Assembly: GCA_000165345.1 (NCBI GenBank)
Contig: CM000432.1
Coordinates: 256,001-320,000, forward strand
Length of the DNA: 64,000 nucleotides
Direction of reading: 5' to 3'
A program made the position numbers and the translations under genes. Shown piece by piece: positions 14,169-45,342 of the stretch. The stretch's first letter is position 1; every line of letters starts with the position of its first letter. Under the pieces are notes generated by a model, which had not been told where the DNA came from, did no database searches, and worked only from the letters and a program-made list of their open reading frames with translations.

Positions 14169-22476
<8,308 letters not shown>

Positions 22477-26742: not shown

Positions 26743-27579
26743 TTATTTAATTTTTTTAAAAATAATTCCTCTTTTAATTTATAACGAAAAAAAAAAAAAT
26801 TAGAAGTAAATGTTAATTCTAATAAAAAACCTCTTTGACCCTTAATTTTAATTCAATGCTTTATACTTAATTAATTTATTATCATTAATTTCACTATTGA
26901 CATATAATTTTTTTCAAAGTATTAGAACAAAATATTTATTTTATTTTATTTTATTTTTTTCAATTGATCAACTCTTTCTGTAATTAATTAATCAAAATAT
27001 TTTTTTTTTTAATAAAATAGTTGTAAAAAAAAGATATTTATATTTATTACACTGATCCCTTCTATATTAACGCATTTACTTCACATATTAAATATATTTC
27101 TTTGTCTTATTATTATTCTAATTTTTTTATTCCTATCTATTTAAAATTAATTAAAAAAAAAAATCTTTAGTGGTCAAAAAATGACGTGGCAATATTAAAT
27201 ATTTTTTTAAAAATTAATTTAAATAATTTTATGTGGACGAAGATTCTCCAATAAAATATTTTTTTTAATTCAAGATGGATTATATGGACATATTAATTAA
27301 CAAGTTGCAATAGTTCCTATACCGGTGTTTGACAATTTACATGCAGATTTGCATGCACACCACAACAAAAAAATTGACCTAAAAAAATATCTAAAATATA
27401 AAAGTTAAAGAGGAAAAAGGAAAGCTTTCCAATTTTTTCTTCAAGAAGAAGGAATTAATTTGAACTAATTTTGGTAAGTAAAAATTTTTTTTAAAAATTA
27501 ATATTACTTTATTTTTTAATTCGCAAATGTATATAATCATGTGCAATTTATATCAATTAAAAAAAAAAAAATTAAACTT

Positions 27580-40291: not shown

Positions 40292-41632
40292 TTAAAGCTC
40301 AGTGGATTGATCCCCGTCTCTAATGGATGATTGTATATTAACTCCAATCTCAATCGAATAGTTAATAAAAGTAGTGATAAACATGATGATAAATATAGTT
40401 AGTAAAGTATATTTAATAATGTTTAGGCCAAAGCCAAACATTCCACCATTTTGATTGCTTTTAGCTATATTCATTTGTTTATTATTAGACTTCGCAGAAT
40501 TTTTTCTAGATTTAATTTCTAATACAGAAATGGAATAGTCAGCTCCAGCTGAAATAATATATTCATTAGAATTAAAAAATTGTAGGCCAGTAACTGGGAG
40601 CTCATGAAAAATCCCTTCTTTAAGTAAAGTTAGCTCAGTCAGATTATTTTTGAATATTTTAATTAAGCCAGTGTTAGTACCAACAGCCAAAAGTTTATAA
40701 TCGTCAGAAACAACTAGCACAGAAGATGGTTTATCACAAATCAAATTAGAGGCAATTTGGGCAAATAATATGCGATTATTTGGATTTTCATTTGAATTTT
40801 CTTTAGATATCTTCATATTCCAAACTGTCATAAAGGATGAGCCTCTGATTTCATGTAATAACATTGAAACAATATACTGTTGTCTATCATTATTTTTCTG
40901 TCTTCTAGGGCTATTTAACCTTCCATTCTCAATAAAACGGCATTGCCTCACTAAATAATTCCCATTCTTCATCGGTATCGTGAATTTTTTAAAAATATCT
41001 CCAGAATTATACTCATGTACGATAATTGTACCATTTCTATTTGTTGAAATGATAAATTTATTATCTGGAGATATATCCAAATCCAAAATTTCATTTTCAT
41101 GTCCATGAAGCTCCTTCATTTCTAATGGAATGATTTCTCGTGGATTTTCTGAATCAATATTTAATTTCCAAACACGGACAATATTGTCAGTTCCACCAGT
41201 AATTAGGAATTCTCCATTTTTTGAAAACCTACAAACATTTTGTTTACCTTTCTTATTTCCATCCCAGACTGTTTGAAACTGAAGATACATTCTAATTGAC
41301 TTCCCTTGCTTTTCTTCTTCTATATAAAATAATATACAACAATCTCTTATTCCACCTGCTACTAAATTTAATTTGTTATTAAAGCACATACTATCTAATA
41401 CTCCATTTTGTTTAGTTGTATTATAAATATATTTTAACATTAAAGAACTTTCAGCAGAAATTTTATCATTTGCATTTAATTTCTGACACTCTACCTCACA
41501 ATCTTTCAATTCATATAGTTCTATTTGGTCTTCTATTCCATAATCTTTTCCTCCACCTCCTCCACTTAAAATAATGGAATCTCTTGTACAGCATAGCCCA
41601 AAAATGGGATAATCCGCATAATATATTGGCAT
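40292..41632 (-). CDS. Sec12/PREB-like Sar1 guanine-nucleotide exchange factor (WD40, type II membrane anchor)
   Basis: The N-terminal ILSGGGGGKDYGI matches the PREB AAGGGGAAKTGI loop. SKNGEFLITGGTDNIVRVWKL matches human PREB [21 protein letters not shown]. There is a single C-terminal TM helix YTLLTIFIIMFITTFINYSI followed by a short lumenal tail. Confidence 0.75.
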   Translation of the reverse strand: MPIYYADYPIFGLCCTRDSIILSGGGGGKDYGIEDQIELYELKDCEVECQKLNANDKISAESSLMLKYIYNTTKQNGVLDSMCFNNKLNLVAGGIRDCCILFYIEEEKQGKSIRMYLQFQTVWDGNKKGKQNVCRFSKNGEFLITGGTDNIVRVWKLNIDSENPREIIPLEMKELHGHENEILDLDISPDNKFIISTNRNGTIIVHEYNSGDIFKKFTIPMKNGNYLVRQCRFIENGRLNSPRRQKNNDRQQYIVSMLLHEIRGSSFMTVWNMKISKENSNENPNNRILFAQIASNLICDKPSSVLVVSDDYKLLAVGTNTGLIKIFKNNLTELTLLKEGIFHELPVTGLQFFNSNEYIISAGADYSISVLEIKSRKNSAKSNNKQMNIAKSNQNGGMFGFGLNIIKYTLLTIFIIMFITTFINYSIEIGVNIQSSIRDGDQSTEL

Positions 41633-41957: not shown

Positions 41958-41977
41958 GTTTTGGCGGGCTCATGCAC
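41958..41977. promoter_or_regulatory. E2F-like site GTTTTGGCGGGCTCATGCAC
   Basis: Divergent promoter between Sec12 (start 41632, -) and MBL-fold gene 1 (start 42153, +). Confidence 0.45.
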
Positions 41978-42152: not shown

Positions 42153-43217
42153 ATGAAGTTACCATGTGGGATATTATTTGTTGGAACAGGTGTTTCGAGT
42201 TCGGTACCTTTATTACATCATGCATTAAATTCAGAAAATTATAAATGCTTATGTAGCTATGTTGGGAAAAAAGAGGGCCCATATGATATGACAAAGAATA
42301 CTAGAAATAACGTTTCAATTTTAGTTAGAATTCCAAATATAAAAGAAAAAGAGAATGGGGATGATGATTGTTATAATATATTAATTGATTTAGGGAAATC
42401 ATTCAGAGAAGCAGCAATTTCAGTGTTTCCAAATTATAGCATTTCAAAAATAGATTCAGTTATTTTGACACATTTTCATAACGATGCAGTTGCAGGATTT
42501 AGTTCTATATTACATTTTCAACAGAAAAAAGAAACTCTAGTTCCAATTTATTTAAATGCAGAAACTTTGGATCTAGTGAATAAAAGGCATAACAAAATTA
42601 TTAATAACTATGCATTTGAGGACAATTTGGTTAATTCAAAAGATTTGAAACGTAGATATGAATTAAACGTCTTTGATATTTACAATGGTAAAATCGAAAA
42701 ATGTTTGAATTCCAATAAACTATACAATATATTGGATAGCTTTAATAAAGAATCAAAATTCAAAAATAATAAAGAATTTAAGAAAATCGAATTTTCTATT
42801 AATAATATTAAAATAACAGCATTTCCAATGAATCATGGTAATTGTATATGTATGGGGTATTGCTTTCATTTTGAAGAACAAAATGTTATTTATATATCTG
42901 ACTATACATTTCCAATGTTAGATAGTTCTATTGAATTTTTAAATTCTATCAAAGATGAAAAGAGGTCTACACTCATTTTGGATTCCATTTCATATAATAA
43001 AATAAGTAATGCTCATGCAAACATCTCTCAATCTTTGAAATTTATACAAGAATTTTCACCAGATTATGTTTATTTTATTGGTATGTCATGTTCTGTTGAA
43101 CATGATGAGACAAATAAAATTTTAAATAATGAATTAATCAATCTAAAGAATGATGGGAAATGTATCAACACAATTTCTATTGAATTGGCATATGATGGTT
43201 TATTCTTACCTATATAA
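42153..43217 (+). CDS. Metallo-beta-lactamase-fold protein with degenerate metal-binding motif (paralog 1)
   Basis: N-terminal ILFVGTGVSSSVP resembles the l.fLGtG..g.P start of MBL-fold hydrolases (RNase Z/PhnP-like). ILIDLGKSF...IDSVILTHFHNDAVAG gives T-H-F-H-N-D-A where HxHxDH is expected, so the last His is replaced by Ala. Confidence 0.65.
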   Translation: MKLPCGILFVGTGVSSSVPLLHHALNSENYKCLCSYVGKKEGPYDMTKNTRNNVSILVRIPNIKEKENGDDDCYNILIDLGKSFREAAISVFPNYSISKIDSVILTHFHNDAVAGFSSILHFQQKKETLVPIYLNAETLDLVNKRHNKIINNYAFEDNLVNSKDLKRRYELNVFDIYNGKIEKCLNSNKLYNILDSFNKESKFKNNKEFKKIEFSINNIKITAFPMNHGNCICMGYCFHFEEQNVIYISDYTFPMLDSSIEFLNSIKDEKRSTLILDSISYNKISNAHANISQSLKFIQEFSPDYVYFIGMSCSVEHDETNKILNNELINLKNDGKCINTISIELAYDGLFLPI

Positions 43218-43311
43218 TAAATTAATATTTTATAATTACTTTGATAATTTTTTATAATTAAATATTGGAAAATTCTACAAATATAAAATTCAAAATTAAT
43301 ACTGATTTTAT

Positions 43312-43745
43312 TTACTTTGATGGAATAATTTGAAGAATTTCCTTTGTTTCTTCTTTTGAAACTTCTTTAAGTGCTTTGATAATCAATAAGAATTCAGTTG
43401 CCAGTTTTTGTATTTCAGAATCTTCTGCACTCTGTGGTGGTAGAAACTCAATCTTTGCTTTTCTAGTTTGAACTTCTTGAGCTGCTTGACTGTGGGCTGA
43501 GATATTTTCTATCACTTGATCAGTATTCTAAAATAAATAATTATTCATTAAATTCTAATTAAAAAAAAAAGAAGTTTTTTTTAATTAAACTTTACCTCAG
43601 AAATATCCTCATTTAATTTATCGTGTGCTTCTTTTACCAATGCCATTGGATCAAAAGCTGCAAGAAACATTGTGGTAATTGGTCTTGCATTTGTAACTCC
43701 AAAGAATGCAACTATAATTAAGAACAATATATTGAAAATCTTCAT
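43312..43745 (-). CDS. Small secreted protein, 2 exons (about 121 aa): complement(join(43312..43527,43596..43745))
   Basis: Exon 1 (not in the track) is MKIFNILFLIIVAFFGVTNA|RPITTMFLAAFDPMALVKEAHDKLNEDISE, a classic signal peptide with AxA-like cleavage after TNA. Donor is CTGAG|GTAAAG, a 68-nt intron ends ttttag, and exon 2 NTDQVIENISAHSQAAQEVQ...ILQIIPSK* follows in phase. The track lists only exon 2 with a GTG-type false start. Confidence 0.55.
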
Positions 43746-43887
43746 AATTTTTTTAATATAGAAAAAAAAATAATAAATTAATAATAAATGTTATTAAATA
43801 AATTGTAAATATTTATTTAATTAATTTTTTTTAGTCACACATTACTATTTTCTCCACTAAACTACTAACATTTTTTTTGCTTGAATT

Positions 43888-43903
43888 TCTATACCGGTAT
43901 CAC
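43888..43903. promoter_or_regulatory. TCTATACCGGTATCAC (ATACCGG motif) about 150 bp upstream of the secreted-protein ATG
   Basis: Member of the recurring TATACCGG(C/T) family (4014, 27316, 53418, reverse at 6841). GTGCATGCGCATATGCATG (43967-43985) lies 65 bp further upstream. Confidence 0.4.
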
Positions 43904-44412
43904 TTGTCCACATTAAAAATAATAATAACGATTACGTGTGCAATTAAATTCAATATTTAAATCAAGTGCATGCGCATATGCATGTTATTGGACAATTTTT
44001 TTCATGCACAAAAAAAAAAAAAAAATGCAATTTTTTAAAAAATTAGTTAAGAATTAAGTTATTTTTAGGAATGGAGAAATCAGTTGAAGATTTTATTATG
44101 AAAAATTTCTTGATAAAATTGAAAAAAAGAAATGAATAAAGAATATACAAATGTATTGGAATAATTAAATTTTAAGTCAAATGTAATTGAAAGAAAACCA
44201 ATTATTAGCTAATAATTGGAATTATTTGAGAGTCGAAAGATATCGTAAATTTTAACTTGGGAAATTCAATACTATTTTTATCAACGATCTCTTGAACAAA
44301 ATCATGTGAATACTTACAATCAATACTATAAAAGAATATATTCTCAGTATTTATTATATTTGCGCAAAAATTTATTGAATCTTTGATTGATTTTGAATTA
44401 ATCGAAATTGAT

Positions 44413-45342
44413 TCATTTGGGACAATTGGGAAAGATGAGTATATTAATAAGTTGAATCGTTTTTAAAAATGCTAAAGTTTCTTTTGGAATAATAGAATAT
44501 CTTGGAATAATGCAAATCAATTTTTTATCACTTGCATATTCAATACAATATCCAGAAGAAAGTTTATTATCTGAATCAATAAAAAATAATGATGTAATTT
44601 TTATTTCATTGGAATATTGAATAATCACTGGATTCAAAGTTAAGTTTTTATCAATTTCATCACTTATCTCAATATCATTATTCAAGCTAATATAATCATT
44701 AAATTTGGATATTGAATCAATTTTAGTAACATCTGGAGAATTTCTTGGATCAAGTATGTTAAGTTGAACACAACCAACTTTTGTTTTTGATTTTAAATCA
44801 TCTTTTAAAGAATAATTAATTATGTAACTATACCAGTCATTAAATTTGTTTAATGCAGAAGATGTAAAATATATTGGTACTCTAATTTTTGGCTCATAAA
44901 ATACTATTCCATCGTTTCCCACAGGTCTTTCATATTTTTGAACTTCTCTTGTTTCATCTATTCCATTAAAAGATGATTCATCCGAACCCATACAAAAAAT
45001 GGCATCCAATCTATTAATATTTGCAGGTATTGCATATTCTAGCATTGATATTCTAAATGTTGAGCCAATTTCAAAAAGAAATGTATCATGGCGTTCACTT
45101 TCAGAACTATTTAAATTACTAACTGGATTCTTAATTAAAATAGAAAATGGATTACGTACATTTTTATTCTTCATCTTAATTGACTCTTGACATATACCAC
45201 AAAATGGGTCGTTTCCTTTATTAACATTATCTATATTTTTAAATACATGCTCAAGATTTGGCGTACCTTGTTCGGTACCAGAACCTAAGAAAAGAATAAA
45301 GCTACTCATATCTCTTGTTGGCTTATGAGAATGTGCATGCAT
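44413..45342 (-). CDS. MBL-fold-like pseudoenzyme (paralog 2 of 42153..43217), metal-binding histidines lost
   Basis: MSSFILFLGSGTEQGTPN parallels paralog 1 KLPCGILFVGTGVSSSVP. FLFEIGSTFRISML...LDAIFCMGSDESSFNG aligns with ILIDLGKSFREAAI...IDSVILTHFHNDAVAG, so the HxHxDH position reads MGSDES. Two candidate ATGs (45342 or 45309). Confidence 0.6.
   Translation of the reverse strand: MHAHSHKPTRDMSSFILFLGSGTEQGTPNLEHVFKNIDNVNKGNDPFCGICQESIKMKNKNVRNPFSILIKNPVSNLNSSESERHDTFLFEIGSTFRISMLEYAIPANINRLDAIFCMGSDESSFNGIDETREVQKYERPVGNDGIVFYEPKIRVPIYFTSSALNKFNDWYSYIINYSLKDDLKSKTKVGCVQLNILDPRNSPDVTKIDSISKFNDYISLNNDIEISDEIDKNLTLNPVIIQYSNEIKITSLFFIDSDNKLSSGYCIEYASDKKLICIIPRYSIIPKETLAFLKTIQLINILIFPNCPK

Follow-up and report, generated by a model that had tools for sequence, protein, structure and literature searches.

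A duplicated PhnP-family metallo-β-lactamase gene of Cryptosporidium parvum with one copy retaining its subfamily metal ligands and one conserved copy predicted to be a pseudoenzyme

The window, a stretch of 64,000 bp, was identified as part of chromosome 4 of Cryptosporidium parvum Iowa II by exact protein matches and primer matches. Two of its genes, cgd4_1130 (paralog 1) and cgd4_1140 (paralog 2), are inverted duplicates of one PhnP-family gene of the metallo-β-lactamase (MBL) fold, with a small two-exon gene located between them. The best explanation of this locus, to which we give a probability of about 0.6, is that the duplication took place in the Cryptosporidium stem lineage, that the two products would serve as a catalytic and a pseudoenzyme subunit, that the small gene is an unrelated neighbour, and that the interrupted frame of cgd4_1140 is due to a single-base frameshift. 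All three genes were annotated in public genomes beforehand. Full-text literature searches by gene identifier or annotation name found no studies of them, and no phenotype or pathway is known to be attached to any of the three. The genes surrounding the MBL pair encode a WD40 protein, a HAD_Pex22-domain protein, a radical SAM protein, a proteasome ATPase, UFD1 and an AP2 factor. There are no phn (C-P lyase) genes among these neighbours, and Cryptosporidium is not known to have a C-P lyase pathway. An Rfam scan of the whole 64-kb window identified no RNA genes.

BLASTP analysis of paralog 1 against paralog 2 showed 25% identity over 290 aa (E 1e-11), and comparison of a profile built only from paralog 2 with the paralog 1 family by hhalign gave a probability of 99.9% (E 8e-35). 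The common N-terminal strand, which had been the basis for proposing that both genes descend from one duplication, is present as ILFVGTGVSSSVP in paralog 1 and ILFLGSGTEQGTP in paralog 2, and this descent is supported by BLASTP, MAFFT and hhalign. Structure prediction, suggested at the outset as a check, was performed for both proteins with AF2. Each model exhibits the alpha-beta/beta-alpha sandwich of the MBL fold and has 6b9v as its best structural match, with a pLDDT of 91.5 and a Foldseek TM-score of 0.86 for paralog 1. The model of paralog 2 (pLDDT 90.3) came from an alignment containing active family members, so an MBL-like model was favoured; the hhalign result is independent of that alignment. 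The fold matches following 6b9v for both paralogs are a Brucella AMP/GMP-bound protein, PhnP, PqqB, tRNase Z and Apyc1. A Pfam scan of paralog 2 with E values up to 1 provided no match, nor did NCBIfam TIGR03307, and this protein was placed in the MBL superfamily by profile-profile comparison and fold. An insertion of approximately 30 aa is common to both Cryptosporidium paralogs and absent in the homologues from Vitrella, Euglena, an ochromonad and a bacterium. Both MBL genes also occur, identically arranged, in C. ubiquitum, C. felis, C. bovis and the gastric species C. andersoni. Because the insertion is common to both paralogs and both genes occur in all four species, the duplication is assigned to the stem lineage, a dating based on shared insertions and deletions and on gene arrangement across species.

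Paralog 1 (cgd4_1130; 42153..43217, forward strand) is an ORF predicted to encode a 354-aa PhnP-family MBL-fold hydrolase with the ligand set of its subfamily intact. It is an exact match to EAK87633.1, annotated as a "PhnP like hydrolase of the metallobetalactamase fold", and its gene identifier was assigned through a primer match (Mauzy 2012). Pfam analysis places it in PF12706 (Lactamase_B_2) with 47.8 bits and an E value of 1.7e-12, the gathering threshold being 27 bits. As originally read, motif II contains T-H-F-H-N-D-A at residues 106-112 (42468..42488, forward strand), so the canonical HxHxDH is present as H-F-H-N-D-A, Ala standing where the last His would be. The original prediction took this protein for a degenerate copy, a view that does not hold, as HxHxDA is usual in its subfamily (55 of 56 members, free-living protists included) and the other catalytic ligands are all present. 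H107, H109 and D111 of motif II occur in 56/56 family members and A112 in 55/56, while D79, H228, D250 and H288 (motifs I, III, IV and V, respectively) are invariant or nearly so in the family alignment; paralog 1 keeps every one of these ligands and is the only one of the two paralogs to do so. The cgd4_1130 product is most likely a metal-dependent phosphodiesterase that acts on a small phosphoester or cyclic phosphate. Counting against catalysis are the missing fourth motif II ligand and the missing DDxR element, which is found in 46 of the 56 family members and is lacking only in the 10 Cryptosporidium paralog 1 orthologues. The hairpin following motif II comprises 20-25 residues in paralog 1. 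Against the TIGR03307 PhnP equivalog model of NCBIfam the protein scores 45.3 bits where the cut-off is 272, and its "PhnP-like" label denotes family resemblance and not orthology.

Paralog 2 (cgd4_1140) is predicted to be a 367-aa MBL-fold pseudoenzyme, its full extent being 44205..45309 on the reverse strand when a 1-nt insertion is disregarded. The residues M-G-S-D-E-S were claimed to stand opposite motif II with all histidines gone, and BLASTP, MAFFT and hhalign agree on this alignment. The former motif II reads M-G-S-D-E-S-S (44971..44991, reverse strand), and its six motif columns hold G-S-D-E-S-S, with HxHxDH absent and 0/4 ligands left. At motifs I, III, IV and V, paralog 2 contains E; D or another residue; R, T, H, D or N; and S or a variable residue, respectively. 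None of the catalytic metal-ligand positions is preserved in any aligned paralog 2 orthologue (seven in one alignment, ten in another), in agreement with the proposal that at least one paralog is a pseudoenzyme. A complete ligand set in both paralogs was looked for and not found, paralog 2 being without any catalytic ligand. The pattern S-[DNT]-E-x-S is common to the orthologues at the former motif II, and the motif III His has become Asp in paralog 2 of the intestinal species. Also retained are a conserved His/Cys3 cluster and the ancestral helix and hairpin after motif II (IDExREVQ.YERP..DG...Y.P), with a hairpin of 35 residues exactly as in Vitrella. The gene is intact in every other Cryptosporidium genome examined, and the orthologues range from 360 to 378 aa. 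Between C. parvum and C. ubiquitum, paralog 2 has a dN/dS of 0.20, and the values for paralog 1, the WD40 neighbour and the small gene are 0.09, 0.14 and 0.13, respectively. By these sequence comparisons, cgd4_1140 is a conserved pseudoenzyme under purifying selection and not a decaying gene.

Transcripts of both paralogs were previously found at similar, very low levels, increasing between 36 and 72 h (Mauzy 2012, PMC3305300). In these data the Spearman correlation of the paralog medians is 0.79, with RT-PCR values near the detection limit, and the genes adjoining the paralogs likewise rise late. Both cgd4_1130 and cgd4_1140 are listed in a table of Matos 2019, which is evidence of detection only, and neither appears in the supplementary tables examined from Tandel 2019 or in those examined from a lncRNA paper.

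These two proteins resemble active/inactive MBL pairs in that one copy has the ligands, the other is without them, and both are conserved. The helix and hairpin after motif II are kept by cgd4_1140 and lost by cgd4_1130, and the reverse is true of the ligands. PhnP, tRNase Z and Apyc1 are dimers. Since the losses are complementary and the MBL relatives are dimeric, the products of cgd4_1130 and cgd4_1140 would most likely associate as a heterodimer. In the proposed mechanism, an ancestral PhnP-family homodimer would have become a heterodimer in which only one subunit is catalytic. The catalytic subunit would be cgd4_1130, with the ligand set D; HxHxD followed by Ala for the last His; H; D; H, and cgd4_1140 would be the non-catalytic subunit, retained under purifying selection. 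A stronger proposal, which we offer only tentatively, is that the heterodimer is obligate, with cgd4_1140 supplying the helix and hairpin lost by cgd4_1130, and, as a separate matter, that the small neighbour, in view of its strongly conserved C-terminus, is perhaps an essential genus-specific secretory protein.

There is some chance, though a rather low one, that cgd4_1140 acts alone as a neofunctional non-catalytic protein for ligand binding or scaffolding and is not the partner of cgd4_1130. The non-random nature of its former active site, with S-[DNT]-E-x-S in all orthologues and the motif III Asp in the intestinal species, agrees with such a role, as does its dN/dS of 0.20. However, the features it has retained are exactly those that cgd4_1130 has lost, the relatives PhnP, tRNase Z and Apyc1 are generally known as dimers, and no species examined lacks either gene. 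An unlikely alternative to the catalytic assignment is that the HxHxDA subfamily, cgd4_1130 included, does not consist of binuclear hydrolases but of mononuclear proteins with other chemistry, such as that of the PqqB oxygenase type, or of non-catalytic proteins. The second-metal His of motif II is indeed Ala in 55/56 members and PqqB structures are among the best fold matches, but invariance extends to all the other ligands at the two metal sites (D111, D250 and H288), which argues that the metal site is used, and the closest structures are phosphoesterases (6b9v, 3md7/3qh8 and PhnP). A heterodimer with cgd4_1130 as its catalytic subunit is the preferred reading.

The two-exon gene originally proposed between the paralogs was confirmed. 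Exon 1 (43596..43745, reverse strand) has 50 codons that encode the signal peptide MKIFNILFLIIVAFFGVTNA and a conserved RPITTMFLAAFDP. The intron (43528..43595, reverse strand) is 68 nt in the splice model, begins GTAAAG and ends TTTTAG (GT-AG), and has a counterpart at the same position in the C. ubiquitum annotation. Exon 2 (43312..43527, reverse strand) has 71 codons and a stop and includes the highly conserved C-terminal 45 aa. Annotated C. parvum proteins, QOY42003.1 among them, have exactly the sequence of its 121-aa product. Nucleotide identity with C. ubiquitum falls from 84-85% in the exons to 59% in the intron, the gene is kept across the genus Cryptosporidium, and on this sequence evidence it is considered real. 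The C. bovis gene model is truncated. In the original numbering the gene has no cgd identifier, the primer table passing directly from cgd4_1130 to cgd4_1140 (Mauzy 2012, PMC3305300).

The small protein was described as having a signal peptide and an acidic mature part of about 100 aa, and both features are found. The N-terminus consists of MK, IFNILFLIIVAFFGV and TNA|RP, a pattern kept in the orthologues, with a short charged start, a hydrophobic core, small residues at -3/-1 and no further transmembrane segment in the protein; it is the sole 19-residue window with a Kyte-Doolittle hydropathy above 1.6. The mature part is 101 aa with a pI of 4.9 and contains 18 acidic and 12 basic residues. 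The protein is predicted to enter the secretory pathway through a cleavable-looking signal peptide. It has a very conserved C-terminal helix, and its C-terminal 45 residues are more conserved than either MBL protein. A profile run against 1.84 billion representative proteins returned Cryptosporidium sequences only, and Pfam and NCBIfam provided only chance-level matches. This gene is best treated as an unrelated neighbour of the MBL pair.

Approximately 150 bp upstream of the small-gene ATG is the palindrome ATACCGGTAT (43891..43900), a probable cis-regulatory element, and the ATACCGG copy predicted in this promoter is part of it at 43891-43897. ATACCGG occurs 7 times in the window where 0.65 occurrences are expected, and the palindrome is kept between -119 and -160 of the small gene in C. 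ubiquitum, C. felis, C. bovis and C. andersoni. A GCATGC/ATGCAT cluster, TGCATGCGCATATGCATG, is found at 43967..43984; it is present as claimed but is not a true palindrome, being made up of overlapping short palindromes (GCATGC, GCATATGC and ATGCAT). TGCATGC occurs 16 times against 2.6 expected, and the GCATGC cluster beside the ACCGG element is kept in five species. The promoter motifs of the three genes differ: the small gene has ACCGG and GCATGC, paralog 1 has an E2F-like GGCGGG, and paralog 2 has TGCATGCA at its start.

The original prediction treated the three genes as one co-regulated module, with catalytically dead MBL-fold proteins that would bind or otherwise handle the small secreted factor, a reading that is now very improbable. 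In its favour are the order paralog 2 – small gene – paralog 1, kept from C. parvum to C. andersoni, the similar expression profiles of the two paralogs, and the strong conservation of the small-gene promoter and C-terminus. The adjacency of the three genes is conserved, but it is uninformative because the whole of the surrounding 17 kb or so is collinear in C. ubiquitum, C. felis and C. bovis, and to a very large extent in C. andersoni too. Against co-regulation are the three separate promoters with different motifs. The small protein has a signal peptide and the MBL proteins, which start directly with the first beta-strand, have none, so different compartments are expected. A role of the MBL proteins as binders of the secreted factor is not supported. 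Judged against its family, paralog 1 is also not a dead copy.

The ORF originally given for paralog 2 (44413..45342, reverse strand) exists, but at 309 aa it is cut off by the 1-nt insertion. The sequence at 44426..44428 is GGG where a 99.6%-identical isolate contig has GG, and beyond this point the last 70 or so codons run on in another frame to a stop at 44205-44207. Among the entries listed, the 309-aa form occurs only in EAK87629.1/XP_625711.1 (Iowa II, 2004), the four other C. parvum-lineage entries being 367 or 378 aa. From these comparisons, the 309-aa protein EAK87629.1 is judged to be a frameshift artefact of this assembly, and the extra G a single-base error, or private mutation, of the 2004 Iowa II assembly. 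A programmed frameshift or tiny intron at 44426-44428 was considered and rejected, the extra base being absent from the 99.6%-identical isolate and from other assemblies. Translation of paralog 2 probably begins at Met12 (45309), the position at which orthologues outside the C. parvum/C. tyzzeri group begin; the upstream ATG sits within the TGCATGCA element. That the frame broken in this assembly marks cgd4_1140 as a decaying pseudogene can be dismissed as extremely improbable, given that the gene is intact at 360-378 aa in the four other C. parvum-lineage entries, C. hominis, C. tyzzeri, C. meleagridis and chipmunk genotype I and also intact in C. ubiquitum, C. canis, C. felis, C. ryanae, C. 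bovis and C. andersoni, that its dN/dS is 0.20, and that its transcripts are detected. The points for annotation are this artefact and the truncated C. bovis small-gene model.

Among known systems, the PhnP-family phosphodiesterases include E. coli PhnP (3g1p), a "new diphosphatase from the PhnP family" (6b9v) and the Brucella AMP/GMP-bound protein (3md7/3qh8). Compared to these, the Cryptosporidium proteins are approximately 100 aa longer and contain a lineage-specific insertion; paralog 1 has HxHxDA in place of HxHxDH and is without the GLDDxR helix signature, and paralog 2 is without any catalytic ligand. The HxHxDA subfamily is unnamed and mainly of protist and metagenomic origin, with members in Vitrella (P0011), Euglena (P0025) and an ochromonad (P0039) and metagenome proteins labelled K06167-like "phosphoribosyl 1,2-cyclic phosphodiesterase"; literature searches by gene identifiers or names found none of its members. 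Paralog 1 has every invariant residue of this subfamily, including the motif II Ala and the H23/C32/C34/C313 cluster, but differs in the absence of DDxR and the following hairpin, in having CxC for CxxC, and in the presence of a second, catalytically dead copy in Cryptosporidium. Among apicomplexans and their chromerid relatives, named matches were found in Cryptosporidium and Vitrella only, which would make the pair a potentially parasite-selective target, only if it is essential. The Apyc1 anti-Pycsar phage nucleases (PF23023) are a further point of comparison, since the precomputed Pfam labels of the orthologues include PF23023 and the fold matches include 7u2r, 7u2s and 7t28. However, sequence similarity to 7u2r is weak (E 0.18), the Apyc1 motif is the canonical HxHxDH, and the Cryptosporidium gene context gives no hint of Apyc1-type cyclic-nucleotide immune signalling.

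The closest parallels to the pair as a whole are CPSF73/CPSF100, INTS11/INTS9 and the two halves of ELAC2, in which the MBL fold is likewise duplicated and one copy is ligand-less yet retained. CPSF100, INTS9 and the N-terminal half of ELAC2 are textbook pseudoenzyme partners that arose by subfunctionalisation after duplication. In ELAC2, the long tRNase Z, the dead N-terminal half keeps a substrate-binding element that is missing from the active C-terminal half, and the complementary loss in cgd4_1130 and cgd4_1140 is analogous. Unlike these systems, the Cryptosporidium copies are not fused, have no beta-CASP domain, and belong to the PhnP branch and not to the RNA-processing branches. Proteins with beta-CASP align over the MBL core only and with lower scores, and CPSF and INTS structures rank far lower among the fold matches. 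If the proposed reading is true, the first active/dead MBL pair to lie outside the RNA-processing branches would be this parasite-specific one; as an independent second example, from the small-molecule PhnP branch, it would show that this route is general, and it would provide a lead to the function of the uncharacterised HxHxDA subfamily.

The window is AT-rich (G+C approximately 25%) and eukaryotic, and gene identifiers were assigned by mapping onto it the primer sequences from the Mauzy et al. 2012 supplement (PMC3305300). This places cgd4_1130 (paralog 1) at 42153..43217 on the plus strand, cgd4_1140 (paralog 2) at 44205-45309 on the minus strand once its coding extent is corrected, and the HAD_Pex22-domain gene cgd4_1150 at 45.7-46.4 kb. 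The cgd4_1130 product exactly matches EAK87633.1 of C. parvum Iowa II ('PhnP like hydrolase of the metallobetalactamase fold'). No identifier in the primer set falls between cgd4_1130 and cgd4_1140, so the small gene located there (43312..43745, minus strand) appears to have been missed by the original annotation. Annotations of later genomes (C. parvum, C. hominis, C. tyzzeri, C. meleagridis, C. ubiquitum, C. canis and C. felis) include it, and its spliced product exactly matches QOY42003.1 and similar C. parvum entries ('putative integral membrane protein'). Public annotations already include all three genes, and a literature search by gene identifiers and names returned no paper on any of them. 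Elsewhere in the window, between 16000 and 22000, two very long plus-strand ORFs (14169-19757 and 19729-22476) show G+C down to 18-21% and GC skew as high as +0.49, suggesting a large purine-biased, low-complexity coding region.

The two MBL genes had been predicted to share an N-terminal strand and a common ancestor. Both ORFs and the strand are present. BLASTP aligns 290 residues of the two proteins at 25% identity (E 1e-11), and a profile restricted to paralog 2 orthologues hits that of the paralog 1 family with a probability of 99.9% (E 8e-35, 305 columns); the homology is well past chance level. Paralog 1 is above the threshold for Pfam PF12706; among NCBIfam models the closest are unnamed MBL hydrolases and PhnP, every one far under the cut-off, and the solved structures nearest to it in sequence are 6b9v, Brucella 3py5 and 3md7, Apyc1 and PhnP. 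The AlphaFold models are both confident (pLDDT 91.5 for paralog 1 and 90.3 for paralog 2) and retrieve the same top structures: 6b9v, titled 'a new diphosphatase from the PhnP family', a Brucella AMP/GMP-bound protein, PhnP, PqqB, tRNase Z/ELAC1 and Apyc1. Both are on this basis PhnP-branch MBL-fold proteins, neither being PhnP itself. The named apicomplexan and chromerid matches in one hit list of this subfamily are Cryptosporidium and Vitrella only, with no Plasmodium, Toxoplasma or Eimeria protein in that list, which suggests loss of the subfamily in other apicomplexan lineages.

Metal ligands were counted in an alignment of 56 family members (ten Cryptosporidium orthologues, sequences from Vitrella, Euglena and an ochromonad, further protist transcriptomes, many metagenome proteins and a single bacterial sequence). 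Residues D79 (motif I), H107, H109 and D111 (motif II), D250 (motif IV) and H288 (motif V) are present in 56/56, and H228 (motif III) in 55/56. The fourth motif-II position, A112, is also shared by 55 of the 56, with His in the bacterial sequence only, so HxHxDA reads as the signature of an old subfamily and not as Cryptosporidium decay. The T-H-F-H-N-D-A of paralog 1 is present as predicted, at residues 106-112, and the protein carries every ligand found in its relatives. In every alignment it lies opposite M-G-S-D-E-S-S of paralog 2, in which all metal ligands are lost: the canonical D of motif I is now E, the H, H and D of motif II are G/S, D/N and variable, the H of motif III is D or other, the D of motif IV is R/T/H/D/N, and the H of motif V is S or variable. 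An S-[DNT]-E-x-S pattern is conserved at the former active site. The description of both paralogs as degenerate therefore holds for paralog 2, a conserved pseudoenzyme, and fails for the apparently competent paralog 1. Both retain H23, C32, C34 and C313; PhnP and PqqB have a Cys-rich structural zinc site, and by analogy these residues probably form a structural metal site.

The paralog 2 ORF first proposed (44413..45342) exists but is truncated. Past ...NILIFP coding shifts to another frame for approximately 70 codons, which align with the paralog 1 C-terminus. The window reads GGG at 44426-44428, compared with GG in a 99.6%-identical 4.7-kb Logan contig, and this one extra G splits cgd4_1140. 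Since all orthologues are 360-378 aa and the gene is intact in four further C. parvum-lineage entries, IOWA-ATCC among them (367 or 378 aa), the sequence comparison identifies the break as an assembly error or private mutation, and the true coding sequence is 44205-45309. The deposited Iowa II protein of the 2004 assembly (EAK87629.1/XP_625711.1), which clusters with the truncated 309-aa paralog 2, is an artefact of the same extra G. The 378-aa models use an upstream ATG, and their eleven extra N-terminal codons start inside a TGCATGCA element (45334-45341) and are missing in orthologues beyond the C. parvum/C. tyzzeri group; the 367-aa models begin at Met12 (45309), the likelier start.

An insertion of approximately 30 residues (paralog 1 residues ~178-208) is common to both paralogs and absent in all outgroups, which dates the duplication to the Cryptosporidium stem. 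The helix following motif II reads G-(L/I)-D-D-x-R in 46/56 members, the ten exceptions being exactly the Cryptosporidium paralog 1 orthologues, whose next hairpin has lost 10-15 residues. Paralog 2 retains IDE(T/V)REVQ.YERP..DG...Y.P, 35 residues long as in Vitrella, and the ancestral CxxC spacing, compared with CxC in paralog 1. One copy thus has the ligands and the other none, both are conserved, and their losses are complementary. Identity to C. ubiquitum is 73% for paralog 2 and 85% for paralog 1, and to C. andersoni 38% and 49%; dN/dS between C. parvum and C. ubiquitum is 0.09 for paralog 1, 0.20 for paralog 2, 0.14 for the WD40 neighbour and 0.13 for the small gene. By these measures paralog 2 evolves faster than paralog 1, yet is clearly constrained. 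In an RT-PCR time course both paralogs are very low, at similar levels, and increase from 36 to 72 h (Mauzy 2012, PMC3305300). Their medians correlate (Spearman 0.79, compared with 0.11-0.54 when either is paired with cgd4_1150 or cgd4_1160), but the values lie near the detection limit and so lend the pairing weak support.

The order HAD_Pex22 gene, paralog 2, small gene, paralog 1, WD40 gene and AP2 gene is kept in C. ubiquitum, C. felis, C. bovis and gastric C. andersoni. Beyond these genes, the ~17-kb neighbourhood is also collinear in all three intestinal species and for the most part in C. andersoni, so the adjacency behind the proposed three-gene module is given no functional weight, and the module itself lacks support.

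The small gene, predicted to have two exons, splices cleanly to 121 aa (exons of 50 and 71 codons; 68-nt intron, GTAAAG...TTTTAG), with the intron after the same codon in the C. ubiquitum annotation. Its product has a single hydrophobic segment, at the N-terminus, where positions -3 and -1 are small residues (TNA|RP), and a mature part of 101 aa (pI 4.9, zero cysteine). A scan for a further membrane-spanning stretch beyond the N-terminus found none, and the 'Integral membrane protein' label probably reflects the signal peptide. Orthologues occur throughout the genus, with (M/V)FLA(A/S)FDP conserved after the signal peptide. Over the last 45 residues C. parvum shares 91-93% identity with C. ubiquitum or C. 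felis, a level of conservation above that of both MBL proteins. A second intron, after EIQ(K/R)L, is present in C. bovis (L003:9454-9940), C. felis (L004:9440-9938) and C. andersoni (L005:9120-9918) and was lost in C. parvum and C. ubiquitum; coding conservation restarts beyond it, which is strong evidence that the gene is real. The C. bovis (91 aa) and C. ryanae (88 aa) annotations appear to end at this intron, without the conserved last exon. When 1.84 billion representative proteins were searched in full with a HMMER profile, six sequences only were returned, of which the named ones and those with MBL orthologues on their Logan contig are Cryptosporidium. As a tentative assignment, the product would be a secretory or ER-lumenal protein peculiar to the genus, with a C-terminal amphipathic helix that may mediate a conserved interaction.

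The small-gene promoter contains ATACCGGTAT at approximately -155 and a GCATGC cluster at approximately -230, in similar positions in 5/5 species compared, and both elements are over-represented in the window. The reported palindrome TGCATGCGCATATGCATG is present, as a cluster of short overlapping palindromes and not a single one. ATACCGG has 7 matches in the window against 0.65 expected (a roughly tenfold excess); five of its six loci (4016, 6842, 27319, 37832, 43891 and 53420) sit 120-400 bp upstream of an ORF start, and it pairs again with TGCATGCA at 27319/27350. It looks like a genuine cis-regulatory motif. An E2F-like TTTGGCGGGC lies at 41960-41969, in the divergent promoter that cgd4_1130 shares with the WD40 gene (40292-41632, minus strand); the motif content of this promoter is unlike that of the small-gene promoter.

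The original prediction was thus largely right in observation and half right in interpretation, and two points merit experiment: the complementary way in which the MBL pair has degenerated, and how extremely conserved the C-terminus of the small protein is. cgd4_1140 may have an independent non-catalytic role; alternatively, the whole HxHxDA subfamily may have a non-hydrolytic, mononuclear chemistry. The most likely reading, with a probability of about 0.3-0.35, is that cgd4_1130 and cgd4_1140 would work as a heterodimer in which cgd4_1130 hydrolyses a phosphoester or cyclic phosphate. The heterodimer is proposed by analogy: PhnP, tRNase Z and Apyc1 act as dimers, and MBL duplicates readily become active/inactive pairs, as in CPSF73/100, INTS11/9 and the two ELAC2 halves, which are taken here as analogues of the Cryptosporidium pair.
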